64,000 nucleotides of DNA. Origin: an uncultured Acidimicrobiaceae bacterium. Lineage in GTDB: Bacteria > Actinomycetota > Acidimicrobiia > Acidimicrobiales > RAAP-2. Positions 3,607 through 19,595 of this stretch are shown here, one piece after another (position 1 is the first letter of the stretch; every line of letters begins with the position of its first letter). The position numbers and the translations under genes are program-made. The DNA is taken from contig CAITPI010000134.1 in the NCBI GenBank assembly GCA_903894295.1, forward strand, positions 4,793-68,792, given 5' to 3'. The notes beneath the pieces are model-generated. The model had not been told where the DNA came from. It saw nothing but the letters and a program-made list of their open reading frames with translations, and searched no databases.

Positions 3607-3610
3607 CGAC

Positions 3611-4762: not shown

Positions 4763-5421
4763 GGCGGTTCTCCCCCTTGCAGATACTTGTCCCCGATCCT
4801 AGCCCCGTCGCCACCAAGTGGTTGGCCCTTCAGCCGATCCTCGTCGAATCCGGTGGCGAGCAGGGCCAACGCCTGGTCGACCACCTCGGTCAGATCGCCG
4901 TCATCCCGTCGGGTCCACTCCTCGAACGCCGCCATCGCCGCCCCCAAGGCCGCCCGGGCCAGGGTTTGGGGAGCCAGGTCCGTCGGCCTTCCACCGAGTC
5001 GACGGGCCGCAAACCTCGCCACCACGTCACACCACTCCTCGTAGCGGACCGCCGAGTGGGCCACGAGGGTCGGGACCGAGCGGATCAGGCTCATCCGCAA
5101 GCGCAGGTCCACCAACTGCTCCTCGTTGAACCGGTTGGTCTCGACCACGGCCCGCCGGAGGACCTGCATCAGGCCTTCCTCGTCCGGGGCCTCGGACAAC
5201 AGCCGGTCCAGGCGGGCCAGTTCGGCGTCGAAGGCGCCCCACACGGCGTCGCTCTTGGACTGGTAGTAACGGAAGAAGGTGCGCCGGCTGATACCCACTT
5301 CGGAGGCGATCTCGTCCACCGTGGTCGCTTCGAAGCCCTGTCGGCTGAACAGGGCAAGGGCGGCCCGGGCCACGTCCTCCCGGGAGGTGGCGGGTCGTCG
5401 ACCCCGGGGACTGGACTCCAT
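4759..5421 (-). CDS. mftR: TetR-family regulator, mycofactocin system (MftR)
   Basis: ORF 4759..5469, start taken at MESSPRGRR (5421; the alternative is 5430). The TetR HTH is VDEIASEVGISRRTFFRYYQSKSD. It is divergent from mftA. Confidence 0.8.
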   Translation of the reverse strand: MESSPRGRRPATSREDVARAALALFSRQGFEATTVDEIASEVGISRRTFFRYYQSKSDAVWGAFDAELARLDRLLSEAPDEEGLMQVLRRAVVETNRFNEEQLVDLRLRMSLIRSVPTLVAHSAVRYEEWCDVVARFAARRLGGRPTDLAPQTLARAALGAAMAAFEEWTRRDDGDLTEVVDQALALLATGFDEDRLKGQPLGGDGARIGDKYLQGGEPP

Positions 5422-5430
5422 ACCTGACAT

Positions 5431-5480
5431 TTTGGCATTGAGTGCTATAAATTGAAACAACCAACACACCGGGAGGAACC
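5431..5480. promoter_or_regulatory. mftR-mftA divergent control region
   Basis: This 50-bp intergenic stretch is the most AT-rich sequence nearby: tttggcattgagtgctataaattgaaacaacc. It has a -10-like TATAAAT at about 5446-5452 and an SD-like GGGAGGA at 5471-5477 before the mftA ATG. It is the likely site of an MftR operator, which I did not define. Confidence 0.4.
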
Positions 5481-5594
5481 ATGAGCACTGCCCCAGCCGT
5501 CACCAGCGAAGAAGACGTCGAAGAGACCGAACTCGTCGAAGCGGACCTGTTGGTGGAAGATGTGTCCATCGACGGCATGTGCGGCGTCTACTAA
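5481..5594 (+). CDS. mftA: mycofactocin precursor peptide MftA (37 aa)
   Basis: Absent from the ORF track because it is too short. My translation is MSTAPAVTSEEDVEETELVEADLLVEDVSIDGMCGVY followed by a stop. The C-terminal IDGMCGVY is the canonical MftA core. An SD lies upstream and mftB starts 3 nt after the stop. Confidence 0.95.
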   Translation: MSTAPAVTSEEDVEETELVEADLLVEDVSIDGMCGVY

Positions 5595-5597
5595 GTC

Positions 5598-5894
5598 GTG
5601 GCCATCGCCGTATCCGAGGAGGTCTATGACGGCCGTCGGGCCTGGGCCCTCCACCCGCAGGTCTCCCTGCGGCCGGAGTCCTTTGGCGCGCTGGCCTACC
5701 ACTTTGGAACCCGGCGCCTTTCCTTCCTGAAAAGTCCCGAGTTGCGCGCCGTGGTCGAGCGCCTGGCCGAGACCGGGTGTGGTGACGAGGCGCTCGTCGA
5801 GGTTGGCGTGCCGGAAGCCGAGTGGCCCCGCTACCACCAGGCGCTGGCCACCTTGGCCCGCACCGGCATGATCGTCCGCCGGGATCCGTCGTGA
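5598..5894 (+). CDS. mftB: mycofactocin biosynthesis chaperone MftB (RRE-type peptide-binding protein)
   Basis: ORF 5598..5894 (GTG start), 98 aa, positioned between mftA and mftC. The sequence WALHPQVSLRPESFGALAYHFGTRRLSFLK is typical of MftB. Confidence 0.85.
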   Translation: MAIAVSEEVYDGRRAWALHPQVSLRPESFGALAYHFGTRRLSFLKSPELRAVVERLAETGCGDEALVEVGVPEAEWPRYHQALATLARTGMIVRRDPS

Positions 5895-7066
5895 CGGCCG
5901 TGGTCGGCCGGTTGGCCGACCGGTTCGAACAGGGCCTTGATGCTCCCATCTGCCTGACGTGGGAGTTGACCTATGCCTGCAACCTGGCGTGCACCCACTG
6001 CCTGTCCAGTTCGGGCCGGCGCGACCCCAGGGAACTCACCACCAACGAGTGCATCGCCCTCATCGACGAGTTCGAGCGCATGCAGATCTTCTACGTCAAC
6101 ATCGGCGGCGGCGAGCCCACCATCCGGGCCGACTTCTGGGATCTGCTCGACTACGCCACCTCCCACCACGTCGGCGTGAAGTTCTCCACCAACGGGTCCC
6201 GCATCACCCCGGACCGGGCCCGGCAACTGGCGGCCAACGACTACCTCGACATCCAGATCTCCCTCGACGGGGCGACCGCCGAGGTCAACGATGCCGTGCG
6301 GGGCAACGGCTCCTTCGACGCCGCCATAAAGGCCATGGAGCGGCTGGCCGACGCCGGAATGTCGGGCTTCAAGATCTCGGTGGTGGCCACCCGGCACAAC
6401 GTTGGTCAACTCGACCGGTTCGCCACCCTGGCCGACCGCTACGGCGCCCAGCTTCGGCTCACCCGCCTTCGACCCTCGGGCCGGGGCGCCGACGTCTGGG
6501 ACGACCTGCACCCAACGTCGGTCCAACAGCGGCAGATCTACGACTGGCTGGTCGACCACGGGGACCAGGTCCTCACCGGTGACTCGTTCTTCCATCTCGC
6601 CGGCTACGGCGAGAGCCTCCCGGGACTGAACCTGTGTGGCGCCGGTCGGGTGGTCTGCCTCATCGATCCGGTCGGTGATGTCTACGCCTGTCCGTTTGCC
6701 ATCCACGACGAGTTCCTGGCCGGCAACGTGCGCTCGGATGAAGGCTTCGCCGGGGTGTGGCGGACCTCCTCCTTGTTCTCGTCGCTCAGGGAGCCCCAGA
6801 GCGCCGGAGCGTGCGCCTCGTGTGGGCACTTCGACGCCTGCCGGGGTGGCTGCATGGCCGCCAAGTTCTTCACCGGACTTCCCCTCGATGGGCCCGACCC
6901 CGAATGCGTGCTGGGCCACGGTGAGACCGCCCTCGCTCAGCGCGACGGGGTGGTGCTCCCGAAACCGGCGGTCGACCACTCACGCCAGCCGATCGCCCTC
7001 AGGACCCGTCGGCCGGACCGGTCGTGTGACGAGAGTCCGTTGGCCGGCTTCACTCCTGCCCCCTGA
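5891..7066 (+). CDS. mftC: mycofactocin radical SAM maturase MftC (rSAM/SPASM)
   Basis: This is the frame of ORF 5822..7066. I take the start at GTG 5891, which overlaps the mftB stop (GTGA). It has the CNLACTHC rSAM cluster motif and a C-terminal SPASM region, CGAGRVVCLIDPVGDVYACPF...CASCGHFDACRGGC. Confidence 0.95.
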   Translation: MTAVVGRLADRFEQGLDAPICLTWELTYACNLACTHCLSSSGRRDPRELTTNECIALIDEFERMQIFYVNIGGGEPTIRADFWDLLDYATSHHVGVKFSTNGSRITPDRARQLAANDYLDIQISLDGATAEVNDAVRGNGSFDAAIKAMERLADAGMSGFKISVVATRHNVGQLDRFATLADRYGAQLRLTRLRPSGRGADVWDDLHPTSVQQRQIYDWLVDHGDQVLTGDSFFHLAGYGESLPGLNLCGAGRVVCLIDPVGDVYACPFAIHDEFLAGNVRSDEGFAGVWRTSSLFSSLREPQSAGACASCGHFDACRGGCMAAKFFTGLPLDGPDPECVLGHGETALAQRDGVVLPKPAVDHSRQPIALRTRRPDRSCDESPLAGFTPAP

Positions 7067-7068
7067 CC

Positions 7069-8997
7069 GTGATGACTGTGGCCGAGCGGCGTCTGTTGAC
7101 CGAAACGATCGAACTGGCCGGACGCCAGGCGTCCAGCCGGGTGGTCTTCGGACCCCACGAGACCAATCTCGGCGACGACCGCGCCCTTGGTTCCCGCCAC
7201 GCCGCCTACTACGCCGCCCGGGCGGCCGGCGGGGCCGGCATCATCATCACCGAGACCGCCTCGGTGCACCCCTCGGACTGGCCCTACGAGCGGGCACCCC
7301 GGGCGGACGGGTGTGGACCGGGATGGCAGGCCATCGTCGCCGCCTGCCGCCAGGAGGGCGCCCTCGTGGTGGCCAGCCTCGGGCACGCCGGAGCACAGGG
7401 ATCGAGTGCCTACTCCCAGATGGCGCTGTGGGCCCCGTCCCCGGTGGCCGACGTGGTCAACCGGGAGATGCCCATGGTCATGGAACAGGCCGAGGTCGAC
7501 CAACTGGTGGAGGGTTTCCACACAAGTGCCGTGGTGGCCCGTCAGGCCGACCTCGACGGCATCGAGATCGACATCGGGCCCTACTCCCTGCTGCGCCAGT
7601 TCCACTCGGGACTCACCAACCAACGCAGCGACCGCTACGGCGAGGACCGGCTCCTGCTGACCCGCCAGGTCATCGGCGCCGTCCGGGACGCCCTCGGAGA
7701 CGACCGGATCGTCGCCCTTCGCTTCTGTGCCGACGAGTTGGCACCCTGGGCCGGAATCACCCCGGAGATGGCCGCCGAAGCCCTGGCTTCTCTGGCGCCG
7801 CTGGTCGACATGGTGACGGTGGTCCGGGGTGGTCCGTACTCCACGTCGTCCTACCGTCCCGACGCCCACACGGGGGCAAACTTCAACCGGGAGCTGTGCG
7901 AATCGATGCGATCGGCCGTCGGGGGAACCGCCCTCGTGGCGCTCCAGGGCAGCGTTGTCTCGGTGGCCGACGCCCAGGACGCCCTCGACGGGGGCGTGTG
8001 CGATCTCGTGGAGATGACCCGGGCCCAGATCGCCGACCCGCGGCTGGTGGCCCGGGTCCGTGAGAACCAGGCCGAACGGATCCGACCTTGTGTCCGGTGC
8101 AACCAGGCCTGTCGGGTGCGGGACAACCGGAACCCCATCGTCAGCTGCATCGGCGAGCCCCGCAGCGGACACGAGACCACCGAGGACGAGCCCGAAGAAG
8201 GCGCTCCCCGGACCCGTCGGCCCGTCCGGATCGTCGGATCCGGTGTGGCCGGACTCGAGTGCGCCCGGGTGCTGGCCCTCATGGGCCACACCGTCGAGGT
8301 ACTGGAGGCGGCCCCGGTTCCCGGTGGCACCCTCCGACGGGCCGCCCGGGGTCATGGCCGGGAGAACCTCGGCGCACTGGTCGACTGGCTGCTCGACGAG
8401 TGCGGGCGCCTTGGCGTCACCATCCGCTGTGGGGTGACCGCAACGGCGGACGACCTCGGAGGAGACGTGATCCTGGCCACCGGGTCCCGGCCACAGCCCC
8501 ACCGCCACCCCAACGACGGCACGGTCGCCGTCGTCGACGCCCTTTCCGTCCTGGACGGCGATGAACTCCCCTTTGGGCCGGTACTGGTCCACGATCCGGT
8601 GGGAGGTCCGGTCGGCATCGGGATCGCCGAATGGCTGGCCGGGGAGGGAATCGAGGTGGCCCTGGCCGCCCCCGACCCCATCGCCGGCACCTTGCTGTCG
8701 CTGACCGGAGACCTGGCGGATGCCAACACCCGGCTCCAACAGGCCGGCGTCAAGCGCGAGCTCCGGGTCCGACTGCGTGAACTCGCCGACGGCCAGGCGT
8801 TGCTCGAGGACGTCTGGACCGCCGAACGTCGGCGCATCCCGGTCGCCACGGTCGTGGATGCCTCACACCGCGAGCCGGAAGAAACCCTTTATCTGACCCG
8901 GCCGGGAACCACCCGGATCGGCGACTGTGTCGCACCCCGCTCGGCCCTCGAGGCCGTCCTCGAAGGGCGTCGGGCCGCCATGGCGGTGGAGGCCTGA
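7069..8997 (+). CDS. FadH/OYE-family flavo-iron-sulfur oxidoreductase (mycofactocin-associated type 1)
   Basis: ORF 7069..8997. It has an N-terminal OYE TIM-barrel (AAYYAARAAGGAGIIITE), a CVRCNQACRVRDNRNPIVSC 4Fe-4S motif and a C-terminal Rossmann domain (RIVGSGVAGLECA). The architecture is that of 2,4-dienoyl-CoA reductase. Confidence 0.8.
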   Translation: MMTVAERRLLTETIELAGRQASSRVVFGPHETNLGDDRALGSRHAAYYAARAAGGAGIIITETASVHPSDWPYERAPRADGCGPGWQAIVAACRQEGALVVASLGHAGAQGSSAYSQMALWAPSPVADVVNREMPMVMEQAEVDQLVEGFHTSAVVARQADLDGIEIDIGPYSLLRQFHSGLTNQRSDRYGEDRLLLTRQVIGAVRDALGDDRIVALRFCADELAPWAGITPEMAAEALASLAPLVDMVTVVRGGPYSTSSYRPDAHTGANFNRELCESMRSAVGGTALVALQGSVVSVADAQDALDGGVCDLVEMTRAQIADPRLVARVRENQAERIRPCVRCNQACRVRDNRNPIVSCIGEPRSGHETTEDEPEEGAPRTRRPVRIVGSGVAGLECARVLALMGHTVEVLEAAPVPGGTLRRAARGHGRENLGALVDWLLDECGRLGVTIRCGVTATADDLGGDVILATGSRPQPHRHPNDGTVAVVDALSVLDGDELPFGPVLVHDPVGGPVGIGIAEWLAGEGIEVALAAPDPIAGTLLSLTGDLADANTRLQQAGVKRELRVRLRELADGQALLEDVWTAERRRIPVATVVDASHREPEETLYLTRPGTTRIGDCVAPRSALEAVLEGRRAAMAVEA

Positions 8998-8998
8998 G

Positions 8999-9805
8999 AT
9001 GGGACGACTGGACGGCAAGGTGGCGCTGGTGACCGGAGCAGCCCGGGGCCAGGGACGGAACCACGCCGTGAAGTTGGCCGAGGAGGGCGCCGACATCCTG
9101 GCGATCGACCTCGGCCACGATCTCGATGGACTCGCCTACCCGATGGGAACGGCCGACGATCTGGCCACCACCGCCGCCCTGGTCGAACAGGCCGGACGAC
9201 GATGCCTGAGCGGGCTGGTCGACGTCCGGGACCACGACGGCCTGCGGGCCTTCGTCGACGCCGGCGTTCGAGAACTCGGGCACCTTGACGTGGCGGTGGC
9301 CAACGCAGGGGTCTGTTCGACCCAACGCTTCACCGAGATCACACCGGAGCTTTGGGGCACCGTGATCGGGATCAACCTCACCGGCGTCTTCAACACCTGT
9401 GCGTCGGTTGTCCCCCACCTGGTTGCCGCCGGCGGCGGTTCGCTGGTTCTGATCTCCTCCACGGCCGGTTCGAAGGGACTCCCCTTTGTCACGCCCTACG
9501 TCGCCGCCAAGCACGGCGTGGTCGGCTTGATGCGCTCCCTGGCCAACGAGTTCGCCGAGGCCGGGGTCCGGGTCAACTCGCTGCATCCGACCGGCGTCGA
9601 CACACCCATGCTGGGCGGCATGGCCGGTCTCGCCGGGTACCTGGCCGAGCGTCCGGATCTCGGACCGCTCTTCATGAACGCCTTGCCTGACAACCTGATC
9701 GGCGTGGAGGACGTCACCAACGCCCTCTTGTTTCTCGCCTCGGACGAGTCCCGGGCCGTCACCGGATTGACCCTGGCCGTCGATGCCGGAGCAGGCAACC
9801 GATGA
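8999..9805 (+). CDS. mycofactocin-coupled SDR-family oxidoreductase (nicotinoprotein type)
   Basis: This is the frame of ORF 8927..9805, starting at ATG 8999 (MGRLDGKVALVTGAARGQGR). It has the characteristic insert DLGHDLDGLAYPMGTADDLATT after the first beta-alpha unit and the Y-x3-K motif YVAAKHG. Confidence 0.8.
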   Translation: MGRLDGKVALVTGAARGQGRNHAVKLAEEGADILAIDLGHDLDGLAYPMGTADDLATTAALVEQAGRRCLSGLVDVRDHDGLRAFVDAGVRELGHLDVAVANAGVCSTQRFTEITPELWGTVIGINLTGVFNTCASVVPHLVAAGGGSLVLISSTAGSKGLPFVTPYVAAKHGVVGLMRSLANEFAEAGVRVNSLHPTGVDTPMLGGMAGLAGYLAERPDLGPLFMNALPDNLIGVEDVTNALLFLASDESRAVTGLTLAVDAGAGNR

Positions 9806-11757
9806 ACGGCACCTACCGCCACCTGCTTTCCCCGCTCCGCATCGGACCGCTGACCGTGGAGAACCGGATCGTCTTCTCGGCCCACCTCACCAACTACGCC
9901 AAAAACGGAAAGCCGACCGAGCAGCATGCCGCCTACTACGCCGCCCGGGCGGCCGGTGGGGCCGGCCTCATCATCACCGAGGAGCACTCGACCCATCACA
10001 CCGACTGGCCGTACGAGAAGCTGATCCATGGCTTCCATCCCGAGGTCATCCCCGGCTACCGGCGGATCACCGACGCCGTGCACGCCCACGGCGTGCCGAT
10101 CCTGGCCCAGATCAACCACAACGGCGGCCAGGCCTCCTCGATGTACTCGCGGCTTCCGGTCTGGGCACCGAGTCCCGTGCCCGATCCCCTGTTCCGTGAG
10201 GTCCCCAAAGCCGTCGAGCCCCACGAGATCGCCGAGATCGTTGCCGGCTACGCGCTCGTGGCCCGCCACTGCATGGACGGGGGTTTCGACGGGATCGAGC
10301 TCCAGTGCTCGCACTCCTCCATCGTCCGGGGCTTTCTTTCGCCCGCCACCAACAAGCGCCGGGACCACTACGGCGGCTCCCTCGAGAACCGGGCCCGCCT
10401 GTTGTTGGAGATCGTCGCAGCCGTCCGGGGGGTCATCGGACCACAACGGGCGCTTGGCGTCCGGTTGTGCGGGGACGAACTCATCGAAGGCGGCACCACC
10501 ATCGACGAAGCCGTGGCCGTGGCCCGGATGGTGCAGGCCACCGGCGAAGTCGACTACATCAACACCTCGATCGGCGTGGCGACCGCCACCCTCTTCATGA
10601 TCGAAGCCAGCATGCAGGTCCCCTCGGGCTACTCCTCGTTCATCCCGAGCGCCATCCGGGACGCCGTCGACCTGCCGGTGGTCGGGGTCGGACGGTACAA
10701 GGATCCCCTGGCCGCCGACCGGGCGCTGGCCGAGGGACTGTGCGACCTGGTGGGCGTGGTCCGGGGTCAGATCGCCGATCCGGACTTTGCCGCCAAGGCC
10801 CGTTCCGGCCACACCACCGACATCAGGACCTGCCTGTCCTGCAACCAGGAGTGCGTGGGCCGGATGGGACTGAACCGCTGGCTCGGCTGCATCGAAAATC
10901 CCCGGACCGGGCACGAGGCCGTGGCTTTGCCCGAGCCCACCCGACGGCGGCGGGTGGTCGTCGTGGGCGGTGGACCGGCCGGCATGCAGGCGGCTGTGAC
11001 CGCCGCCGAGCGGGGTCACGAGGTGGTCCTGCTCGAACGGTCCGAGCGCCTCGGCGGTCAGGTCAACACCGCGGCGGCCGTGCCCAGCCGGGCCGAGTTC
11101 TACGACATCGCCCGCAACCTCATGGTGGCCACCCGCCGGGAAGGCGTCGACGTCCGACTGGCCACGGAGGCCACGCCCGAACTCCTCGCAACCCTTCAGG
11201 CCGACGTGATCATCCTGGCCACCGGGGCCCGGCCCCAACGGCCGTGGTGGGCCGGCGACTTCGAACAGGTCGTCGACGTGCGGGACGTTCTCGAAGGACG
11301 GGCCGAGGTGACCGGCGACGTCGTGGTCATCGACGAACTGGGGTTCCACCACGCCACCTCGGTCGCCGAGTTCCTGGCGGCCCGGGGATGTCGGGTCGAG
11401 GTGGCCACCAACGGCATGGTGGTCGGGCAGGATCTGGGCATCACCCTCGACCTCGAGATCTGGAACATGAAGGCCCACCACGCCGGGATCACCCAGTCGG
11501 TTGATCTCGTGCCCATGGGGATCACCGCCACCGACGAGGGTCGCCTGCAGTTGAACCTGCAGCACCACCCCACCGGCCAGGACGTCGTCCGCACCGCCGA
11601 CTGGGTGGTCTGCGCCGTCCACCAACAGGCCGATGACGACCTCTGGCACCAGTTGAAGGACGGAGGGGTCCCTCTCCGTCGGATCGGTGACTGCCTGGCT
11701 CCCCGCCGGGCCAATGCCGCCGTGATCGAGGGTCAACGGGCGGCGGTGGCGCTGTGA
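9802..11757 (+). CDS. FadH/OYE-family flavo-iron-sulfur oxidoreductase (mycofactocin-associated type 2)
   Basis: ORF 9802..11757 (ATGA overlap). It has the same architecture as 7069..8997: AAYYAARAAGGAGLIITEE, CLSCNQECVGRMGLNRWLGC and VVVVGGGPAGMQAA. Confidence 0.8.
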   Translation: MNGTYRHLLSPLRIGPLTVENRIVFSAHLTNYAKNGKPTEQHAAYYAARAAGGAGLIITEEHSTHHTDWPYEKLIHGFHPEVIPGYRRITDAVHAHGVPILAQINHNGGQASSMYSRLPVWAPSPVPDPLFREVPKAVEPHEIAEIVAGYALVARHCMDGGFDGIELQCSHSSIVRGFLSPATNKRRDHYGGSLENRARLLLEIVAAVRGVIGPQRALGVRLCGDELIEGGTTIDEAVAVARMVQATGEVDYINTSIGVATATLFMIEASMQVPSGYSSFIPSAIRDAVDLPVVGVGRYKDPLAADRALAEGLCDLVGVVRGQIADPDFAAKARSGHTTDIRTCLSCNQECVGRMGLNRWLGCIENPRTGHEAVALPEPTRRRRVVVVGGGPAGMQAAVTAAERGHEVVLLERSERLGGQVNTAAAVPSRAEFYDIARNLMVATRREGVDVRLATEATPELLATLQADVIILATGARPQRPWWAGDFEQVVDVRDVLEGRAEVTGDVVVIDELGFHHATSVAEFLAARGCRVEVATNGMVVGQDLGITLDLEIWNMKAHHAGITQSVDLVPMGITATDEGRLQLNLQHHPTGQDVVRTADWVVCAVHQQADDDLWHQLKDGGVPLRRIGDCLAPRRANAAVIEGQRAAVAL

Positions 11758-12659
11758 GCCGTCGGGCGGTCGTTCCGGTCCGGGATGGTCGGCTCCCCAA
11801 GGGAGCCGCCGACGCCGTGGCGCTGGCCGACGGAGAGGTGATCCTGGTCGGCGAGGGAACCCGGGACGCCGCCGAAGTGCTCTTGGCCCGGACCACCTGG
11901 TGTCTGGAAGCCGCCTTTGCTCCCGGTCGTCTGGCCGCCGGACTGGCTCCCCATCTGGACGACGTCGACGTCGTCATCGTGCCGGCGTCCCTCGACGGGC
12001 GGGATCTGGCCCCGCGCCTCGCGGCCCAAATGGACCGTCCGCTGTGGGCCCGGGCCACCGAACTCGACGACCACCAGGCCCTTCTGGCCCGGATCGACGA
12101 CCGGGTCGTCGTCCCGGTCCGCCTGGACGGACCGTGTGTCGTTACCGTGCTCCTCCAGGGTCGCGCCTACACCGGGAGTGGCGGTCCCGTCCACGAACTC
12201 TTGCCCGTCGCCGACACCGGGCTGGAGGCCAGCCAACTCTCGGTGTCCGAGCCCGACGTCCGGGATCTGGCCGAGGCGCCCCGGGTGTTGGCCGGAGGCG
12301 CCGGACTGGTCCAGGGTCTCGATGACCACGAGGCGCGCCAGGTCTTCGCCCTGCTGGAACGGGTCGGCGAGGCGCTCGGGGCCGCCATGGGCGCCACCCG
12401 GGTCGCCACCGATGCCGGTTGGGTCTCCTACGACCGCCAGATCGGCACGACCGGCGTGGTGATCGATCCCGACCTCTATGTCGCCTTCGGTATTTCCGGC
12501 GCCGCCCAACACGTGGACGGCCTCGGCACCCCGAAGCACATCGTCAGCATCAACCTGGACGCTTCCTGTCCCATGACCGCCCGGTCCGACCTCGGACTGG
12601 TCTCCGATGCGAGGGCGCTCCTCGTCGCCCTCGCCCAACGACTGGGGGTGGAATCGTGA
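11754..12659 (+). CDS. electron transfer flavoprotein alpha subunit (EtfA/FixB-like)
   Basis: ORF 11754..12659 (GTGA overlap). The C-terminal FAD-binding signature is IGTTGVVIDPDLYVAFGISGAAQHVDGL. Confidence 0.75.
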   Translation: MSRRAVVPVRDGRLPKGAADAVALADGEVILVGEGTRDAAEVLLARTTWCLEAAFAPGRLAAGLAPHLDDVDVVIVPASLDGRDLAPRLAAQMDRPLWARATELDDHQALLARIDDRVVVPVRLDGPCVVTVLLQGRAYTGSGGPVHELLPVADTGLEASQLSVSEPDVRDLAEAPRVLAGGAGLVQGLDDHEARQVFALLERVGEALGAAMGATRVATDAGWVSYDRQIGTTGVVIDPDLYVAFGISGAAQHVDGLGTPKHIVSINLDASCPMTARSDLGLVSDARALLVALAQRLGVES

Positions 12660-13957
12660 CCAGCTACGACGCCATTGTGGTGGGCGCCGGTCCGGCCGGA
12701 GCCAGCGCCGCCCTCGCCCTGGCCCGGGCCGGTCGACGGGTCGTGATGGTCGAGCGGGGCCTGTTTCCCGGAGCCAAGAACGTCTACGGCGGGGTCATCT
12801 ACGGGCGGGTCCTCGACGACATCATCCCGGCCTGGTGGGAAGAGGTTCCCTTCGACCGCTGGGTGGTTCGCCGCTCGACGATGGTGATGACACCGAACCA
12901 GTCCCTGTCCATCGACTACCGCACCGACGCCTGGGCCGACGCCCCCTACAACGGCATGACGGCCACCCGGTCCCGCTTCGACGCATGGCTGGCCGGCCGC
13001 GCCGTAGCCGAAGGCGCCACCCTGGTGACCTCCACCGTGGCCACCGGCCTCATCCGGGACCAACGCGGTGCCGTTGTGGGCGTGCGGACCGACCGCGACG
13101 GGGCCGAGCTTCTGGCACCGGTGGTCGTCGCCGCCGACGGCGTGAACTCCTTCCTTGCCAAGGAGGCCGGGCTCCTCCCGAAGGCCGATGCGGCCCACCA
13201 CACCCTTGGGGTGAAAGAAGTCCTGAAACTCCCCACCGAGGTCATCAACGACCGCTTCGGGGTCAGCAACCACCAGGGAGTGGACATCGAGATGCTGGGC
13301 TGCACCGGCGAGGTTCCCGGAGGCGGATTCCTCTACACCAACACCGACTCGGTCAGCATCGGTGTCGTGCTTTCGCTTCCGCAGCTGGCGGCTTCGGGCC
13401 GGCGCCCGGAGTCGTTCATTGCCGACCTGAAGGAGCACCCGTCCATCGCCCCGCTGCTGCGTGGCGCCACCCTTGGCGAGTATTCGGCCCATCTCATCCC
13501 CGAAGGGGGCTTCCACGTCATGCCCAAACTGGCCGTCGACGGGATGGTGCTGACCGGCGATGCCGCCGGGATGACCCTGGCCGCCGGCATCTGGCTGGAA
13601 GGCGTCAACTTCGCCATCGGCTCCGGCTGGACGGCCGGGCAGGCCATCGACCGGGCATTGGCCACCGGGGACGTCTCGGCATCCGGCCTCGCTTCCTACC
13701 GCTCGGACCTCGAGGAGTCCTTCGTCCTGGCTGACCACCGACGTCTCCGCCGGGCCCCCGGCCTCGTGCTGTCCGAACGGGTCCAGCAGCGCTACCCGGG
13801 ACTCGTCTGTGACCTGGCCGAGAGCTTCTTCACCGTGACCAACCCGACACCCAAGGCGGGCGGACGCAAGTGGCTGCAGGCGGCAACGAAAAAACATGGC
13901 GTGCGCCTGCGCCACCTGGTCCGTGACGGCTGGGAAGGAATGAGGACGTTCGGATGA
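12656..13957 (+). CDS. FAD-dependent ETF:quinone oxidoreductase-like protein (FixC-like)
   Basis: This is the frame of ORF 12419..13957, starting at GTG 12656 (GTGA overlap). It has the YDAIVVGAGPAGASAALALARAG dinucleotide fold and GFLYTN...HLIPEGG, which are typical of FixC. Confidence 0.8.
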   Translation: MTSYDAIVVGAGPAGASAALALARAGRRVVMVERGLFPGAKNVYGGVIYGRVLDDIIPAWWEEVPFDRWVVRRSTMVMTPNQSLSIDYRTDAWADAPYNGMTATRSRFDAWLAGRAVAEGATLVTSTVATGLIRDQRGAVVGVRTDRDGAELLAPVVVAADGVNSFLAKEAGLLPKADAAHHTLGVKEVLKLPTEVINDRFGVSNHQGVDIEMLGCTGEVPGGGFLYTNTDSVSIGVVLSLPQLAASGRRPESFIADLKEHPSIAPLLRGATLGEYSAHLIPEGGFHVMPKLAVDGMVLTGDAAGMTLAAGIWLEGVNFAIGSGWTAGQAIDRALATGDVSASGLASYRSDLEESFVLADHRRLRRAPGLVLSERVQQRYPGLVCDLAESFFTVTNPTPKAGGRKWLQAATKKHGVRLRHLVRDGWEGMRTFG

Positions 13958-14250
13958 ACAACCGCTGGCAGGGAGTTTCCTTCACCGACCGACTCGCCAC
14001 GGTCGACTACCGGGTCGGCGAACGGGCCCACATCGTCGTGGACTCCGACGTCTGTCGGTCCTGCACCACCAAGGCCTGCGTCACGGCCTGCCCGGCCAAC
14101 CTGTTCGCCCCCACCGCCGAGGGCGGCATCCTGTTCAACTACGAGGACTGCTTCGAGTGCGGCACCTGTTACATGGTCTGCAACAACGATGGAGCGATCA
14201 CCTGGACCTACCCGGACGGCGGATTTGGCGTCGTCTTCCACCGGGGCTGA
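13954..14250 (+). CDS. FixX-like ferredoxin
   Basis: ORF 13954..14250 (ATGA overlap), 98 aa. CRSCTTKACVTACPANLF...CFECGTCYMVC matches the FixX ferredoxin-like protein pattern. Confidence 0.8.
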   Translation: MNNRWQGVSFTDRLATVDYRVGERAHIVVDSDVCRSCTTKACVTACPANLFAPTAEGGILFNYEDCFECGTCYMVCNNDGAITWTYPDGGFGVVFHRG

Positions 14251-14252
14251 CC

Positions 14253-15041
14253 ATGATCGGCGTCGTGCTCACCATCTCCGACCTGCACCCATCGGTCGAT
14301 CCGTTGACCGGAGCGGTTCACGACGATTCCTTCGGCTTCGGCCTGACCGCCGCCGACGGGTGTGCCCTCGAGACGGCCTTGCGGCTGGCCGAGGCGACCT
14401 CGACTCCTCTGGAGGTCGTCGCCATCGCACCCGACGCGGCCGGAAATGTGCTGGGGGAAGTTGCGGCCTTCGGGGTGGCAACCACCCGGATCGAAGTCTC
14501 CGCCCTGGTCGTCGACGAGCGGGCCCTGGCCGCCCAGGTCGCCGGGCTGCTCGCCGGAGCCACCCTGGTGCTCACCGGTTGGACCGACACCGGGGCCCTG
14601 CCCGCCTTTCTGGCCCACGAACTCGGCGCCGCCCAGGGGCTGGGCCTGCTCACCCTGGAGGCCCGGGGGGAGCGTCTGGTTGGCGTGCGACGGCTCGATG
14701 GTGGCTGGCGGGAGGAGCTGGACCTGCCGACGCCATCGGTGTGTTCGATGGAAGGCGGGTCGCTCCGCTTGCGCCGCGCTCCGCTGTCCGGAGCCCTCAG
14801 CCCCTCGCCGGTTCGGGTCATCCCCGGTCCGGCCGAACCCACCGGGGTGGGTTCACCGCGGCCGTTCCGGCCATCGGCCCGACCCCTTCCGGCTCCCGCC
14901 GGGAGTCAACACGAGCGGTTGCTGGCCCTGACCGGGGCGATGGAAGAGCACGAACCTCCGGTGGCAATGGGTCCGCTTCCGCCCGTCGAGGGAGCCGGGG
15001 AGCTTCTCGGATTCCTGGCCCGACAGGGCTATCTGAGCTGA
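14253..15041 (+). CDS. electron transfer flavoprotein beta subunit-like (EtfB/FixA-like), divergent
   Basis: This is the frame of ORF 14157..15041, starting at ATG 14253. MIGVVLTISDLHPSVDPLTG...ADGCALETALRLAE...LVLTGWTDTG..PAFLAHELG follows the EtfB layout. The C-terminal third is Pro-rich and looks divergent. Confidence 0.6.
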   Translation: MIGVVLTISDLHPSVDPLTGAVHDDSFGFGLTAADGCALETALRLAEATSTPLEVVAIAPDAAGNVLGEVAAFGVATTRIEVSALVVDERALAAQVAGLLAGATLVLTGWTDTGALPAFLAHELGAAQGLGLLTLEARGERLVGVRRLDGGWREELDLPTPSVCSMEGGSLRLRRAPLSGALSPSPVRVIPGPAEPTGVGSPRPFRPSARPLPAPAGSQHERLLALTGAMEEHEPPVAMGPLPPVEGAGELLGFLARQGYLS

Positions 15042-15739
15042 TGCCCACGCTCGCCGGCATGACCTGGAGCGAACTGGCCAGCCGACCGGTCGTCCTCGTA
15101 CCCGTTGGAGCCACCGAGCAGCACGGACCCCATCTCCCCCTTTCGACCGACACCGACATCGCCCTCGCCCTGGCCCAACGGGCCGCCCTGGCCCGACCAG
15201 CCTGTGTCGTCGCTCCTCCAGTGGCCTATGGGTCAAGCGGCGAGCACCAGGGCTTTCCCGGCACGTTGTCCATCGGGCTCGAGGCCATCCGGATGGTGTT
15301 GGTGGAGCTCGTCCGGTCCGCATCCTCCTTTGCCACCGCCACCGTCCTGGTCTCCACGCACGGAGGCAACCGGGCGGCCCTCGACGAGGTCCGCCGGACG
15401 CTTGGGAACGAAGGCCACCGTTTTGCCATCTTCACCCCGACCTGGCGAGGTGACGCCCACGCCGGGCGACTCGAGACCAGTCTCATGCTGGCCATCTCGC
15501 CCGGCCGGGTGCGGCGCCCACTGGCCCAACCGGGAAACACCACCGCCCTGGCGGAACTGCTGCCCCGGCTCCGGGCCGAAGGGGTGCGGGCCGCCAGTCC
15601 CAGTGGCGTCCTCGGTGATCCGACCGGCGCCAGCGGCGGGGAAGGTGAGGAACTTCTCGCCACTGCGCTCGATGAGCTACTCCTCGTCGTGGACGAGTTC
15701 GCCCAACGAAAGGAACCGACATGTCCCGAGTTGCTGTAG
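15041..15739 (+). CDS. mftE: mycofactocin peptidase MftE (creatininase-fold)
   Basis: This is the frame of ORF 14189..15739, but the real start is at ATG 15041 (TGATG junction). VLVPVGATEQHGPHLPLSTDTDIA, GSSGEHQGFPGTLS, STHGGN and HAGRLETS are creatinine amidohydrolase-family motifs. Confidence 0.85.
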   Translation: MPTLAGMTWSELASRPVVLVPVGATEQHGPHLPLSTDTDIALALAQRAALARPACVVAPPVAYGSSGEHQGFPGTLSIGLEAIRMVLVELVRSASSFATATVLVSTHGGNRAALDEVRRTLGNEGHRFAIFTPTWRGDAHAGRLETSLMLAISPGRVRRPLAQPGNTTALAELLPRLRAEGVRAASPSGVLGDPTGASGGEGEELLATALDELLLVVDEFAQRKEPTCPELL

Positions 15740-16503
15740 TGACCGGGGCGGCCCGGGGCATCGGTGCCGCCACGGTCCGCCGCATGGTGGCCGATGACTG
15801 GCTGGTGGTGGCGGTCGACCGGGGATCGGACGATCCTCGTCTGCCCTATCCACTCGGCACTGCCGAGGAGTTGGCCGCGGTGGCCGAGGCCGGTGGCGAC
15901 CGGGTGATCGCCATGCTCGCCGACACCACCGACCCCGACGGCCTGGCCGCTGCGGTGGCCCGGGCCGAGTCCGAGTTCGGGGGCCTCGATGCCATGGTGG
16001 CCGCCGCCGGCGTGATCGCCGGAGGGGTCCCACTGTGGGAGATGCCCGACCACGAGATCGCTTCCGTGCTCGGCGTCAACCTCGGAGGGGTCATCAACGC
16101 CGCCCGGGTCTCCATACCGGCCCTGCTGCGCCAACCCTCCCCCCGCTCCGGCCGGTTTCTGGCCGTGGCGTCCGCCGCCGCCTCCCGGGGCCTCCCCATG
16201 CTGGCCGCCTACGGAGCGGCCAAAGCCGGCGTCGCCGGCCTGATCCGGGGACTGGCCGTCGAACTGGGCAACTCCGGAGTGACGGCCAACGCCGTCTCCC
16301 CCGGTTCCACCGACACCGCGCTCCTGGAGGAGAGCGCCCGCATCTACGGCCTCGAATCGACCGCCGCGTTCACCCACCACCAGCCGATCGGTCGCCTGCT
16401 GGGAGCCGACGAGGTGGCGGCGGCCATCGTCTGGCTGGCCGGTAATGATTCGAGCGGCCTGACCGGGGCCGTCGTTCCCGTCGACGGCGGGCTGGCCCTG
16501 TGA
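15721..16503 (+). CDS. mycofactocin-coupled SDR-family oxidoreductase (second copy)
   Basis: ORF 15721..16503. It has VAVVTGAARGIGAA, the insert DRGSDDPRLPYPLGTAEELAAV and YGAAKAG. It lies between mftE and mftF. Confidence 0.8.
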   Translation: MSRVAVVTGAARGIGAATVRRMVADDWLVVAVDRGSDDPRLPYPLGTAEELAAVAEAGGDRVIAMLADTTDPDGLAAAVARAESEFGGLDAMVAAAGVIAGGVPLWEMPDHEIASVLGVNLGGVINAARVSIPALLRQPSPRSGRFLAVASAAASRGLPMLAAYGAAKAGVAGLIRGLAVELGNSGVTANAVSPGSTDTALLEESARIYGLESTAAFTHHQPIGRLLGADEVAAAIVWLAGNDSSGLTGAVVPVDGGLAL

Positions 16504-17825
16504 GCCCTCGTCAGCTCCGGCTGACGATCGATCCATCCGTCCGCCGATTCGGCACCACCCTCCTCGGCGGTCAACCCACCCGCCTGATGAAACTCTCGCC
16601 GGCCGGCCTGTCGGTCCTCGACGACCTCCAACGGGGCTGTCCACCCACCCCGGGGGCCACCGCGCTGTTCCACCGGTTGGTCACGGCCGGACTCGCCCAT
16701 CCGAGAGGCGAAGGAACCGGAACCCTCACGGTGGTCATTCCGGTCCACAACCGGCCCGACGAGCTCGAAGCGTGTCTGGATGCCCTCGGGACCCGGTGGC
16801 CGGTCGTCGTCGTCGACGATGCATCCGAACATCCACCGGAACGACGACCTGGTATCCGTCATCTCCGACTGGACGTGAACTCCGGGCCGGGCGCGGCCCG
16901 CAACGCCGGGGCGGCGTTGTGTGGGACCGAGTTCATCGCCTTCGTGGACAGCGACGTCACCATCTCCGGCGACGACCTCGCCGGGTTGCTGAGTTGCATG
17001 GACGATCCCGAGGTGGTCGCCACCGCACCCCGGATCAGACCGTTGGCGACCGGACGGACCAACTGGCTGTCACGCTTCGCCGACGGACACTCGGACCTCG
17101 ATCTCGGCGCCCTGGAGAGCGAGGTCGGACCGGGCAAACGGGTCACCTACGTGCCTTCGGCGGTGCTGGTCATCCGCCGGGATGCCTTGGATGACGGCTT
17201 CGACGAGGACCTGCGGGTCGGCGAAGACGTCGACCTCGTCTGGCGGCTGGTGGCCGCCGGGGGCAGGATCCGCTACAACCCCGGCGTGGTGGCGAGGCAC
17301 CGGGAACCGACAAGTTGGGCCCGTTGGTTCAGGCGGCGCTACTCGTATGGAACCTCGGCCGGACCCCTGGCCGTGCGACACCCATCCGGGCCCCTCCGCC
17401 CGACCTTCTCCCGGTGGCCGACGCTGTCCGTCATCGGGCTGCTCTCGGCCCGCCGGTCCACGACCCTGGTCGGTGCCGCCGCCGCCGGGTGGACGGTCAC
17501 GAGGGCCACAAGGACCCTCCGCCCGAAGGGGATCCCGGGACCGGATGCCGCCCGGATGGGCGTGGCCGGGATGGGCTGGACGTTGGTTGGCCTGCTCTCC
17601 TGGGCACTGACGGCATTCGTTCCCCTCGCACTGCTCCGCCGGAAGCGCCGGTGGCTGGTCGTCCTGCCGGCTCTCGTTGCGTGGTGGAACAGGAAGCCCG
17701 AACTCGACCCCGTGCGTTGGGTGGCGGCCAGTCTCGTCGACGATGTCGCCTATGGTGCCGGGGTTTGGGCCGGCTGCCTGAAGGCCCGGACCCTGGCACC
17801 CCTCCTCCCCCGCTGGACCAACTGA
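16500..17825 (+). CDS. mftF: mycofactocin system glycosyltransferase MftF (GT2)
   Basis: ORF 16500..17825 (GTGA overlap). It has an N-terminal PqqD-like segment, a GT2 core (VVIPVHNRPDELEACL...VVVVDDAS...FVDSD) and C-terminal TM helices. Confidence 0.8.
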   Translation: MSPRQLRLTIDPSVRRFGTTLLGGQPTRLMKLSPAGLSVLDDLQRGCPPTPGATALFHRLVTAGLAHPRGEGTGTLTVVIPVHNRPDELEACLDALGTRWPVVVVDDASEHPPERRPGIRHLRLDVNSGPGAARNAGAALCGTEFIAFVDSDVTISGDDLAGLLSCMDDPEVVATAPRIRPLATGRTNWLSRFADGHSDLDLGALESEVGPGKRVTYVPSAVLVIRRDALDDGFDEDLRVGEDVDLVWRLVAAGGRIRYNPGVVARHREPTSWARWFRRRYSYGTSAGPLAVRHPSGPLRPTFSRWPTLSVIGLLSARRSTTLVGAAAAGWTVTRATRTLRPKGIPGPDAARMGVAGMGWTLVGLLSWALTAFVPLALLRRKRRWLVVLPALVAWWNRKPELDPVRWVAASLVDDVAYGAGVWAGCLKARTLAPLLPRWTN

Positions 17826-17898
17826 GCTCCCCCGCTGGACCAACTGAGCTCCCCCGCTGGACCAACTGAGCTCCCCCGCTGGACCAACCGAGCTCCCG
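17805..17898. repeat. 22-bp tandem direct repeat, about 4.3 copies (CTCCCCCGCTGGACCAACTGAG)
   Basis: Copies lie at 17805-17826, 17827-17848, 17849-17870 and 17871-17892 (one T>C change), with a partial copy to 17898. The first copy holds the mftF stop codon (17823-17825). Confidence 0.9.
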
Positions 17899-17954
17899 GA
17901 ACGGTCCACTTCGGGCGATTTGACTGCCCTGGGCCACCTGTGGTCTATACTCTT

Positions 17955-18197
17955 CCTTCAACCAATCCGGACGGAAGATTTTCCCACTTCCGGACCGAAG
18001 CGACCGAAAAGCGAGGCCTGCTCACCACCGACAACCTTCTGGGCATATCGAACCGATAACCGACTGCACACCCTACGGCGTAAAGCCAGGACGAACGAAG
18101 CCTTCCCGCTCGCCGTCCGGGGCCCGAATGCAAAAGTCGGAGCCCGCCGACACCAATCAGAGGAAGGCGCTTCAAGCGCCCTACGAAGGGAGGTGCT
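17955..18197 (+). promoter_or_regulatory. long 5' leader of rpf; candidate ydaO/c-di-AMP-type riboswitch
   Basis: There is about 300 nt without an ORF and with lower GC upstream of the rpf gene. AAUCCGGACGGAAG (17964..) and GGGCAUAUCGAACCGAUAACCGACUGCACACCCUACGG (to about 18078) resemble, from memory, the conserved AAUCC/ACGGxGGA and GGGAUACC...CCCGACAGCUAAC-CUCG blocks of ydaO RNAs. Downstream hairpins, for example GGCGC-uucaa-GCGCC at about 18166-18180, lie next to the SD GGGAGG. No covariance search was possible. Confidence 0.35.
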
Positions 18198-18881
18198 ATG
18201 CGGACCCGCATTGCACTCGCGGCGATCGTTCCGGTCGCTCTCAGTTCCATTACCCTGTTGTCTCCCGTTGCCGCTTCCACGCTGGCATCGGGACCGAGCA
18301 CACAGCCCCACCGGTCATCGTCGTTCAATGGCCTGAATCCCGGATTTGCCTACGAAGGCTGGTCGCCCCACATGGTGGGACTCGTCCAGGACTTCGTCAG
18401 TGGCCGCAAGGCTGCCTCGCTGACGGCATATTCACCGACACCGAAGGCCCGACCCGTGGCGCATCCCGCCAAGGCGAAGGTAGCCCCGGCCCATCCGGCC
18501 GTCGCTCCTTCGGTGGCGATCCAACCGGTGGTCGCCGTGACCCCGGCCGTCATCCATCCGGTGGCCGCAGCCCCCAAGGCCGCGGCCCCGGTCGCTGTCG
18601 CCACTCCGCCGACCACGGCCCCGACTGGGATCGTCGATACCGTGACGCCCACCCAACGGGCTGAGTGGAGTCGGGTCGCCATGTGCGAAGAGGGTGGCAA
18701 CTGGCACGTCAACGGTTCCCGCTTCAGCGGAGGACTCGGCATCTCCCGGGCCAACTGGGTCGCCTACGGCGGCCTGCAGTATGCCCCCTACGGTGCGGCG
18801 GCCACGCCGGACGAGCAGATCATGGTGGCCGAACGGATCCAGGCCAATCCGCCTGACCAGTACGGCTGCTCCTCCTGGTAA
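18198..18881 (+). CDS. rpf: resuscitation-promoting factor (Rpf) family secreted transglycosylase-like protein
   Basis: ORF 18198..18881. It has a signal peptide, an Ala/Pro-rich linker and the C-terminal Rpf domain, WSRVAMCEEGGNWHVNGSRFSGGLGISRANWVAYGG...DEQIMVAERIQ. Confidence 0.85.
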   Translation: MRTRIALAAIVPVALSSITLLSPVAASTLASGPSTQPHRSSSFNGLNPGFAYEGWSPHMVGLVQDFVSGRKAASLTAYSPTPKARPVAHPAKAKVAPAHPAVAPSVAIQPVVAVTPAVIHPVAAAPKAAAPVAVATPPTTAPTGIVDTVTPTQRAEWSRVAMCEEGGNWHVNGSRFSGGLGISRANWVAYGGLQYAPYGAAATPDEQIMVAERIQANPPDQYGCSSW

Positions 18882-18898
18882 GGAGCGTCTCTGCCAAC

Positions 18899-18936
18899 GC
18901 AAAACGCCCGGCCTTTCGGCCGGGCGTTTTGCTTTT
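18899..18936. terminator. bidirectional intrinsic terminator between convergent rpf and csp
   Basis: The sequence gcAAAACGCCCGGCC-tttc-GGCCGGGCGTTTTgctttt forms a 9-bp GC stem flanked by an A-tract and a T-tract. It can therefore terminate transcription from either strand. Confidence 0.8.
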
Positions 18937-18955
18937 GGTGGGCCGGAGCCCCGGT

Positions 18956-19159
18956 TCAGATCTTGCGAACCTGGCTGGCCTGCAGACCCTTCTGACCCTG
19001 CTTGGTCTCGAACTCCACCCGCTGGCCTTCGGCCAGATCGCGGAAGCCCTCCATCTGGATCTCCGACTGGTGGACGAAGAGATCGTCTCCGCCACCATCA
19101 GGAGTGATGAATCCGAAACCTTTTTCGGCGTTGAACCACTTCACTGCACCTACACCCAT
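18956..19159 (-). CDS. csp: cold-shock protein (CspA family)
   Basis: Internal ATG at 19159 of ORF 18956..19579. [34 protein letters not shown]... carries the RNP1 and RNP2 motifs. It is 67 aa, and a long upstream leader is plausible. Confidence 0.95.
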
Positions 19160-19364: not shown

Positions 19365-19595
19365 TCAGACTGGGCGGGGCTTGCGTTCGAGGACGATGGC
19401 CCGCCGGGGACACTCGGAGACGGCCTTGCGGGCCAGGGCAACCAGCTGCCCGGAGACGGGTTCGGGATCCACCATGGGATAGCCCCACTCGTCGAGGGTG
19501 ATCCGTTCCGGGAACATCTCGGCGCAGAACCCGAAGGCGTCACAGGCCACGGGATCGATGCGCAGGGCGTACTCTTCACGGCGCTGGGCGCTCAT
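19365..19595 (-). CDS. small ferredoxin (single-cluster type)
   Basis: ORF 19365..19595, 76 aa. [18 protein letters not shown]...CPRRAI fits small actinobacterial ferredoxins. Its start overlaps the upstream stop (ATGA). Confidence 0.65.

Follow-up and report, generated by a model that had tools for sequence, protein, structure and literature searches.

How does a mycofactocin gene cluster that carries neither mftD nor mftG furnish its cofactor with a redox-active group, and how are the electrons returned to respiration? The question is raised by a 64-kb stretch of high-GC DNA (about 65–70% GC; hereafter the window) from contig CAITPI010000134.1 of an uncultured Acidimicrobiaceae bacterium. 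Here a run of 13 co-directional genes on the plus strand (5481–17825) makes up a mycofactocin cluster, in which the genes between mftC and mftE encode two flavoproteins from the old yellow enzyme (OYE) class, a short-chain dehydrogenase/reductase (SDR), the two subunits of an electron transfer flavoprotein (ETF) and a FixCX pair. MftD (TIGR03966) is the FMN-dependent deaminase of 3-amino-5-[(4-hydroxyphenyl)methyl]-4,4-dimethylpyrrolidin-2-one (AHDP) that creates the redox-active keto-amide. Mycofactocin is needed for mycobacterial alcohol metabolism, and the route of its electrons into respiration became known only in 2025, through MftG. This enzyme re-oxidises mycofactocinol and passes the electrons into respiration, and ∼25% of mftC genomes lack it, its replacement there being an open question (Graca et al. 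2025, PMC11778925).

A mycofactocin operon with its mftD slot otherwise occupied

The 13 genes were taken from a mechanical list of open reading frames (ORFs) and from direct reading of the sequence; identities were scored against curated NCBIfam cut-offs, domains were assigned with Pfam, and structural relatives were sought among PDB sequences. The curated cut-off was passed by every gene that has a dedicated model, fixC and fixX having no mycofactocin-specific one, and the gene identities given in an earlier note made from the letters of the window alone (the original prediction) are thus borne out. The markers of a mycofactocin cluster all score above cut-off. The 37-residue precursor peptide MftA (5481–5594; TIGR03969, 45 bits against a cut-off of 25) has the C-terminus IDGMCGVY, with the invariant terminal CGVY, and is followed by the peptide chaperone MftB (5598–5894; TIGR03967, 108 bits) and the radical SAM/SPASM maturase MftC (5891–7066; TIGR03962, 647 bits). 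At the far end of the run lie the AHDP-releasing peptidase MftE (15041–15739; TIGR03964, 273 bits), a mycofactocin-coupled SDR (SDR2, 15721–16503; TIGR04504, 342 bits) and the glycosyltransferase MftF (16500–17825; TIGR03965, 373 bits).

Between these two groups the first gene encodes OYE1 (7069–8997; TIGR03996, 851 bits against a cut-off of 628), a flavoprotein built of three domains (FMN/[4Fe-4S]/dinucleotide) and belonging to the class that contains DCR (2,4-dienoyl-CoA reductase), NCR (2-naphthoyl-CoA reductase) and TMADH (trimethylamine dehydrogenase). It is followed by a mycofactocin-coupled nicotinoprotein SDR (SDR1, 8999–9805; TIGR03971, 344 bits; NF009467, 295 bits) and by OYE2, a three-domain Fe-S flavoprotein paralogous to OYE1 (9802–11757; TIGR03997, 983 bits against 793). 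The remaining four genes are etfA, for a mycofactocin-associated ETF alpha subunit (11754–12659; NF038209, 369 bits; PF00766), fixC, for the flavoprotein subunit of an ETF:quinone oxidoreductase (12656–13957; PRK10015/PRK10157, ∼315 bits, under their cut-offs), fixX, for a ferredoxin-like Fe-S subunit (13954–14250; PRK15449, E = 4e-15, under its cut-off, with Fer4 domains in Pfam), and etfB, for a highly divergent ETF beta subunit (14253–15041; TIGR04503, 223 bits against 200; PF01012, 30.7 bits).

The genes are packed as the original prediction had described, with GTGA or ATGA start/stop overlaps at 5891, 9802, 11754, 12656, 13954 and 16500, a TGATG junction at 15041, a 19-nt overlap at 15721, and gaps of 1–3 nt at all other junctions. 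A consensus scan of positions 3400–19000 found a sole sigma-70-like promoter match, CTGACA-18-TAAATT on the plus strand at 5424–5453 (9/12 matches to consensus), which lies in the AT-rich spacer between mftR and mftA, and no promoter signal above chance inside the operon. Neither were internal terminators in excess over shuffled sequence (5 found, 5.3 expected), and the first strong terminator stands at 18899–18932, past the gene that follows mftF. The claim of one tightly coupled unit, which internal promoters or terminators would have undone, is consistent with both the junctions and these scans. From its sequence, the region is predicted to be a complete mycofactocin operon, transcribed as one unit, in an alternative layout that is widespread.

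The most informative feature of the locus is what is missing from it. With three real MftD sequences from canonical plasmid records as tblastn queries and the SNHGG motif as positive control, the 64-kb window yielded no mftD match and no ORF with the SNHGG motif, and queries from three MftG subfamilies likewise found no match in it. In canonical clusters mftD stands between mftC and mftE, often with mftG nearby, as on plasmids of Tsukamurella, M. chubuense and Streptomyces sp. NBC_00080; in two canonical clusters (L083, L084) mftG follows mftF, and these two and a third (L081) are without the six to seven redox genes of the window. The window otherwise resembles the canonical mycobacterial system, with mftR, mftA, mftB, mftC, mftE and mftF in the same relative order and with partner genes for a nicotinoprotein SDR and an alcohol dehydrogenase (ADH) nearby. 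The slot of mftD is thus occupied by OYE1-(SDR1)-OYE2-etfA-fixC-fixX-etfB, and no mftG is present. The original prediction saw an operon split by an inserted module; the module does lie between mftC and mftE, but it is rather that mftD is lacking and the module sits in its usual slot. Both missing genes had been overlooked, as had a variant, described below, in which mftD, OYE1-SDR-OYE2 and mftG occur together.

Conservation of the block and its exclusion of mftD and mftG

One genome per species was scanned with an alignment of EtfA relatives. Of the ∼510 stretches that matched, the 80 best loci, each taken with as much as 10 kb of sequence on either side, were compared by mapping the proteins of the window onto them with tblastn. 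These loci come from Acidimicrobiales, Frankiales, metagenome-assembled genomes (MAGs) of Mycobacteriales, Saccharopolyspora, Amycolatopsis and other Pseudonocardiaceae, Streptosporangiaceae, Streptomyces, Nocardiopsis and Dermatophilaceae. In all 68 evaluable loci OYE2 is the gene immediately upstream of etfA; OYE1 is upstream of OYE2 in 61 of 61, and fixC-fixX-etfB follow etfA in 69 of 70; several seeming gene gaps proved to be frameshifts in long-read MAGs and not true absences. The conserved core therefore consists of six genes, OYE1, OYE2, etfA, fixC, fixX and etfB. The seven-gene block originally proposed holds for these six, while SDR1, which separates the two OYE genes in 16 of 55 loci, most of them from Acidimicrobiales, is accessory.

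The proposed link of the module to mft genes is likewise upheld, with mftC directly upstream of OYE1 in 53/59 loci and mftE, SDR2 or mftF downstream of etfB in 53/61. Could the block nevertheless be a chance or horizontally co-transferred neighbour, functionally unconnected with mycofactocin, with mftD and mftG encoded elsewhere? Solitary mftD loci exist, two blocks (L015, L067) have no mft gene in the flanks examined, and in one further locus (L064) OYE1-OYE2-etfA is joined to a molybdenum hydroxylase instead of fixCX-etfB. These two blocks are, however, the only such cases among 59 evaluable loci, so that the block is not common away from mft genes. The same order and tight spacing are kept in Acidimicrobiales, Frankiales, Pseudonocardiaceae, Streptosporangiaceae, Streptomyces and others, across several actinobacterial orders, at only 45–80% protein identity; start/stop overlaps tie the block to the genes on its mftC and mftE sides, and the curated family models were themselves built on association with mft genes. 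We regard a chance neighbour as very improbable.

The divergent locus just mentioned comes from an Acidimicrobiia MAG, where positions 10830–16437 of L064 hold OYE1-OYE2-etfA and then, in place of fixC-fixX-etfB, a molybdenum hydroxylase of three subunits and a CoA-transferase of family III, with mftC and mftB 2 kb upstream on the opposite strand. The window itself resembles the Acidimicrobiales loci in the presence of SDR1 and in the identity of its ADH and MftR. No relative of its EtfA exceeds 57% identity, save for one at 99%, encoded on an ENA metagenome contig of 4.2 kb where the genes stand in the same order, and an exact look-up found no identical sequence on record for OYE2.

The absence of mftD and mftG extends beyond the window. 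No mftG match to the three subfamilies was found in the 80 module loci including flanks, and mftD is absent from all of them save for a 72-residue relic in L060. The reverse test gave the same picture: scanning metagenome contigs with an MftD alignment returned 80 mftD loci (691 kb), and none of these contains a match to etfA, etfB, fixC or fixX. SDR2 is present in 22 of those 80 loci, commonly between mftE and mftF there too, and mftE-SDR2-mftF thus occurs also in canonical clusters. At the level of whole replicons, 12 plasmids carry mftC, of which four have mftD without the mycofactocin-associated ETF, six have the ETF module without mftD, and none has both; in two haloarchaeal plasmids neither mftD nor the ETF module is among the matches listed. 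All six ETF-module plasmids are from Streptomyces, in which an mftD-type plasmid was also found. The ETF-type plasmids showed no close MftG, in a test made insensitive by the divergence of the MftG subfamilies. The module is therefore mutually exclusive with mftD and mftG at the level of locus and replicon.

Beside the ETF-type cluster of L060 (13629–15465), the 72-residue mftD fragment is accompanied by a 5'-truncated mftF and a C-terminal fragment of mftC, which together resemble what is left of a canonical cluster after decay; L051, from a related MAG, contains an intact second mftC-mftF pair. Solitary mftD genes have a setting of their own. In L121, L166, L167 and L168, one of them from an Acidimicrobiales MAG, a lone SDR-mftD pair (mftD at about 9000–11200) is flanked by conserved genes for WS/DGAT, zf-UBP, EAL-GAF, Zn-ADH and DoxX proteins, so that mftD does not everywhere belong to the cluster.

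A third layout shows to which part of the module the exclusivity belongs. In two loci (L098 and L101) the order is mftM and mftR (both in reverse orientation), mftB, mftC, mftD, OYE1, SDR1, OYE2, a mobile-element-like ORF, mftE, mftF and mftG, and neither locus contains etfA, fixC, fixX or etfB. The first of these occupies positions 8400–20200 of L098, metagenome contig Ga0208247_10008. Its OYE proteins are true family members (TIGR03996, 1190 bits; TIGR03997, 1006 bits) and its glucose-methanol-choline (GMC) oxidoreductase is MftG (TIGR03970, 775 bits), so the trio OYE1-SDR1-OYE2 is shared with the window in order and motifs while the complement of mftD, mftG and ETF genes is reversed. Exclusivity with MftD and MftG is therefore a property of the ETF/FixCX part and not of the OYE pair, and since the pair is found together with both genes it does not by itself replace either; the simple idea that OYE1 and OYE2 stand in for MftD and MftG is weakened accordingly. 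Judging from the gi numbers that Haft (2011) gives in Table 4, Rhodococcus jostii RHA1 may share the mftD-OYE1-SDR-OYE2 layout. We considered the ORF at 15957–16481 of L098 as a small redox substitute for the ETF and rejected it, there being no NCBIfam match at E ≤ 1e-20; its translation looks like a mobile-element fragment.

The association of these genes is already curated and partly published. NCBIfam and PGAP label the proteins mycofactocin-associated (TIGR03996/7, NF038209, TIGR04503), and the same layout with the same product names is found in the RefSeq annotation of a Streptomyces plasmid. MftD has been known not to be universal among mycofactocin species (Haft 2011), and 17 Saccharopolyspora mft clusters without the mftD profile but with a TIGR03997 protein have been described in a paper that leaves ETF unmentioned (BGCFlow paper 2024, PMC11162802). 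The same paper reports that antiSMASH mislabels such clusters as ranthipeptide, because mftD is missing, and the mftD-less layout thus bears on genome-mining rules. Our literature search found no paper naming mycofactocin together with electron transfer flavoprotein or ETF. The branch that the original prediction called undescribed is thus novel in its putative electron-transfer role, but not in its proteins or its mftD-less clusters, and the present locus is best seen as a fairly divergent member of a known cluster type to which a putative function is here ascribed.

A possible electron route from mycofactocinol to menaquinone

What might the six conserved proteins do? Both OYE proteins score above the cut-offs of TIGR03996 and TIGR03997 and are encoded next to mftC. 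OYE1 combines the Pfam Oxidored_FMN domain with a Rossmann domain, its closest PDB relative being DCR (1ps9, 140 bits). OYE2 aligns end to end with NCR (6qkg, 289 bits) and DCR (1ps9, 266 bits), and at 178–182 bits with TMADH and histamine dehydrogenase; the relatives of OYE1 rank in the same order at lower scores. The strongest matches of the two proteins to NCBIfam models unconnected with mycofactocin are BaiCD and bilirubin reductase. OYE2 carries the DCR-like 4Fe-4S motif CLSCNQECVGRMGLNRWLGC and the GGGPAG of an FAD/ADP fold, while the CxxCxxxC...C [4Fe-4S] motif and first GxGxxG of OYE1 are kept across 61 sequences, that of the window included; the first GxGxxG...GG fold is kept in both proteins. 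The second Rossmann domain differs. Where DCR has VAIIGCGGIG, OYE2 has VVVIDELGFHHA, in which DELGFHH replaces the GCGGIG loop for NADPH, and OYE1 has sequences of the DPVGGPVG type at the same position, without a Gly motif. The GxGxxG expected there of an NADPH-dependent, FadH-type DCR is accordingly missing from both, and the non-glycine loop is conserved in 70 OYE2 and 61 OYE1 sequences (the window's included) as well as in the ETF-less L098. A difference in this loop between ETF-less and ETF-linked OYE proteins was also looked for, and none was found, the glycine motif being absent from both. A further segment, S/T-x-H-x-x-D-W-P-Y-E, is common to OYE1 and OYE2 at residues ∼66–73, after the second barrel strand, and is absent from the aligned DCR and NCR; OYE2 of L098 has DRPYE, and the presence of D(W/R)PYE in both paralogs hints that they may act on related substrates.

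Lacking the glycine motif for NAD(P)H, OYE1 and OYE2 would therefore need a protein redox partner. The NCR/DCR/TMADH class has members in which ETF is the acceptor, reached through the Fe-S cluster (PMC6502838). TMADH and histamine dehydrogenase are likewise built of three domains (FMN/[4Fe-4S]/dinucleotide) and have the Cys motif in common with the OYE proteins; they do not use NAD(P)H and pass electrons to ETF (PMC6502838), and for the OYE proteins an ETF is encoded adjacently in 68/68 loci, a likeness known from the genes alone. That ETF has the features of a heterodimer, an alpha subunit with a C-terminal FAD domain (NF038209, PF00766) and a beta subunit of ETF fold (TIGR04503, PF01012). 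The FAD domain of EtfA is conserved; its closest PDB relative is 1efp (104 bits), and its best full-length alignment is with the non-bifurcating ETF of Paracoccus. EtfB is recognisable only by the model of its own family and by a marginal match in Pfam, both just over cut-off, and its PDB matches are weak (E = 0.009 at best, to the W3A1 ETF beta subunit); the loop placed opposite the AMP/FAD-binding segment is shorter by four residues, in an alignment that is itself weak (E ≥ 0.009). FixC, which has a quinone-binding region, and FixX, with its Fer4 domains, correspond to a FixCX-type ETF:quinone oxidoreductase. The closest solved relative of FixC is that of the menaquinone-reducing EtfABCX of T. 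maritima (7koe_C, 242 bits), and FixC also matches pig ETF:quinone oxidoreductase (2gmh, 62 bits) and the ETFQO_UQ-bd domain (E = 4e-5).

We therefore tentatively favour, at somewhat less than even confidence, a chain from OYE1/OYE2 through EtfAB and FixCX that re-oxidises mycofactocinol at the expense of menaquinone, its redox partners, substrates and electron direction all being deduced from the genes. OYE1 and OYE2, as FMN/[4Fe-4S] flavoproteins, would oxidise a small molecule at the flavin, most likely mycofactocinol, and the electrons would pass from the OYE flavin through the Fe-S cluster (and FAD) to the dedicated EtfAB, which FixCX would re-oxidise as an ETF:menaquinone oxidoreductase. 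The chain would thereby return the electrons of mycofactocin to the respiratory chain, which is the task of MftG in mycobacteria. MftG, a GMC flavoprotein, is a mycofactocinol dehydrogenase that feeds respiration (PMC11778925); by analogy the module would have the same role, although the two belong to unrelated families and the route proposed here is a multi-component one through ETF and an ETF:quinone oxidoreductase. In the loci examined MftG and the module exclude one another. The potential of premycofactocin is given as −255 mV (cited in PMC11778925), and a passage in PMC10734219 puts menaquinone at −74 mV, so that transfer from mycofactocinol to menaquinone would be downhill and mycofactocinol re-oxidation the most likely direction. 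Disposal of electrons to quinone would also fit the missing NAD(P)H motif, the kinship of FixC to the T. maritima EtfABCX and the exclusivity with mftD and mftG.

The taxa known to be without MftG include five species of Saccharopolyspora, most Amycolatopsis and Frankia (PMC11778925), and the Saccharopolyspora and Amycolatopsis loci of the present set carry the module. With its ∼510 stretches in species-representative genomes, the layout is a concrete candidate for the missing MftG-less route. One OYE protein may in addition deaminate AHDP oxidatively to premycofactocin, the task of MftD, in a reaction resembling TMADH/histamine dehydrogenase chemistry. We consider this replacement of MftD doubtful, if conceivable, and it seems likewise rather unlikely that the block is an O2-independent substitute for MftD and MftG both. 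S. erythraea nonetheless contains both oxidised and reduced forms of the methylated cofactor, detected as MMFT-2, MMFT-2H2 and MMFT-3, and A. methanolica MMFT-8H2 (MMFT, methylmycofactocin; Ellerhorst et al. 2022, PMC9679996), and MftD-independent formation of the keto-amide, if true, would explain how mature mycofactocin arises from the mftD-less cluster of S. erythraea.

The same OYE relationships lend themselves to a different explanation, in which OYE1 and OYE2 would be catabolic ene-reductases or dehydrogenases (for example of enone, enoyl- or dienoyl-CoA, terpenoid or steroid-like compounds) in a pathway with mycofactocin-dependent SDRs, EtfAB-FixCX coupling them to quinone and mycofactocin being the cofactor of their neighbours and not the substrate of the module. 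Their closest solved relatives, DCR and NCR, are substrate reductases, and BaiCD and bilirubin reductase are their strongest NCBIfam matches outside the mycofactocin models; the placing of an SDR between OYE1 and OYE2, both in the window and in L098, suggests a pathway from alcohol to enone to saturated ketone; and the pair stands alongside mftD and mftG in L098. However, 39 of 55 module loci are without SDR1, the block is not accompanied by any conserved gene for a CoA ligase, hydratase or transporter, and it lies within a biosynthetic operon, between mftC and mftE, across several actinobacterial orders. Such a pathway would also leave the exclusivity with mftD and mftG unexplained, and we think it possible but not probable.

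The kinship of FixC raises another possibility. EtfABCX and FixABCX systems (T. maritima 7KOE, FixABCX of nitrogen fixers, E. coli fixABCX and ydiQRST) have the same four-subunit set, and EtfAB-FixCX might thus be a FixABCX-type bifurcating complex in which NADH or mycofactocinol reduces menaquinone together with a low-potential acceptor that feeds the radical SAM clusters of MftC or NCR-like OYE reductases. The nearest solved homolog of FixC does come from a bifurcating EtfABCX. Radical SAM chemistry, and hence MftC, requires a low-potential reductant. Against this, the similarity of EtfB to bifurcating EtfB proteins is not significant (E = 0.08–0.26), the best full-length alignment of EtfA is to a non-bifurcating ETF, and the block has no conserved gene for a ferredoxin or flavodoxin. 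Unlike those systems, the window has the order etfA-fixC-fixX-etfB with a barely recognisable EtfB, the set is always joined to the OYE pair, and no sign of a second FAD or of NADH use can be seen in its sequence. The flux through biosynthesis would hardly justify a dedicated bifurcating complex, and the mftD/mftG exclusivity would again go unexplained, which leaves bifurcation of this kind improbable. More improbable still, in our estimation, is a bifurcating or confurcating machine comprising the whole module, in which mycofactocinol (about −255 mV) would serve as mid-potential donor, split by the divergent EtfAB so that FixCX reduces menaquinone (−74 mV) while the other branch drives NCR-like OYE1/OYE2 in low-potential reductions beyond the reach of NAD(P)H.

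Several observations weigh against the proposed mycofactocinol-to-menaquinone chain itself. In L098 and L101 the OYE pair coexists with the very enzymes it would replace, and it can evidently work there without a dedicated ETF. The sequences of OYE1 and OYE2 place them closer to DCR and NCR, which are reductases, than to the amine dehydrogenases that reduce ETF, the bit scores of OYE2 being 266–289 as against 178–182, and EtfB is too divergent for its cofactor content to be read. The match with MftG-less taxa is at genus level, the species differing from those of the module loci. MftD does occur in some Acidimicrobiales, Amycolatopsis and Streptosporangiaceae, and in L103, L119, L121 and L166–L168 a solitary mftD has no other mft gene within 10 kb; absence of mftD from the flanks is therefore no proof of its absence from a genome. 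Finally, it is gene context and sequence that link the module proteins to mycofactocin.

Neighbouring genes and other features of the window

Upstream of the operon and divergent from it lies mftR, for a TetR-family regulator (4759–5469, minus strand; TIGR03968, 239 bits against a cut-off of 225), whose true start is probably internal to the called ORF since the TIGR03968 model aligns from residue 22 onward. The same strand carries, downstream of mftR, a gene for a Zn alcohol dehydrogenase of the N,N-dimethyl-4-nitrosoaniline (NDMA)-dependent type (3611–4762; TIGR03989, 496 bits against 440), from a nicotinoprotein family that is not known to occur without mycofactocin; its positional counterparts in Acidimicrobiales loci are 75–86% identical to it.

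At the other end of the operon a 22-bp unit (CTCCCCCGCTGGACCAACTGAG) is tandemly repeated 4.2 times at 98% identity (17805–17897). The array begins within the last codons of mftF and takes in its TGA stop, so that a change in copy number would alter the C-terminus of MftF or the 3' untranslated region. A gene for a protein like resuscitation-promoting factor (Rpf) follows at 18198–18881, and after it the region's only strong intrinsic terminator, with a 15-bp stem, at 18899–18932. The 370-nt leader 5' of the Rpf-like gene has no Rfam match, nor did an Rfam scan of the window return one elsewhere.

Farther downstream, a 386-residue ORF on the minus strand (52793–53953) with coding-like GC content at third codon positions (GC3) has no match in NCBIfam at E ≤ 1e-10 or in Pfam at E ≤ 0.001. 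ARAGORN calls an unusually long, 94-nt tRNA-Met (CAT) at 60122–60215, inside a high-GC3 ORF of the opposite strand (59783–60622); no Rfam tRNA match coincides with it and the call may be false. Closer to the operon, 19592–23089 on the minus strand contains a gene for a 645-residue protein, the C-terminal half of which is NuoF-like (FMN/4Fe-4S/SLBB) and the N-terminal ∼270 residues of which have no assigned family, followed by an ApbE FAD:protein FMN transferase gene and a 232-residue ORF without a family match; this group may be a further redox module.

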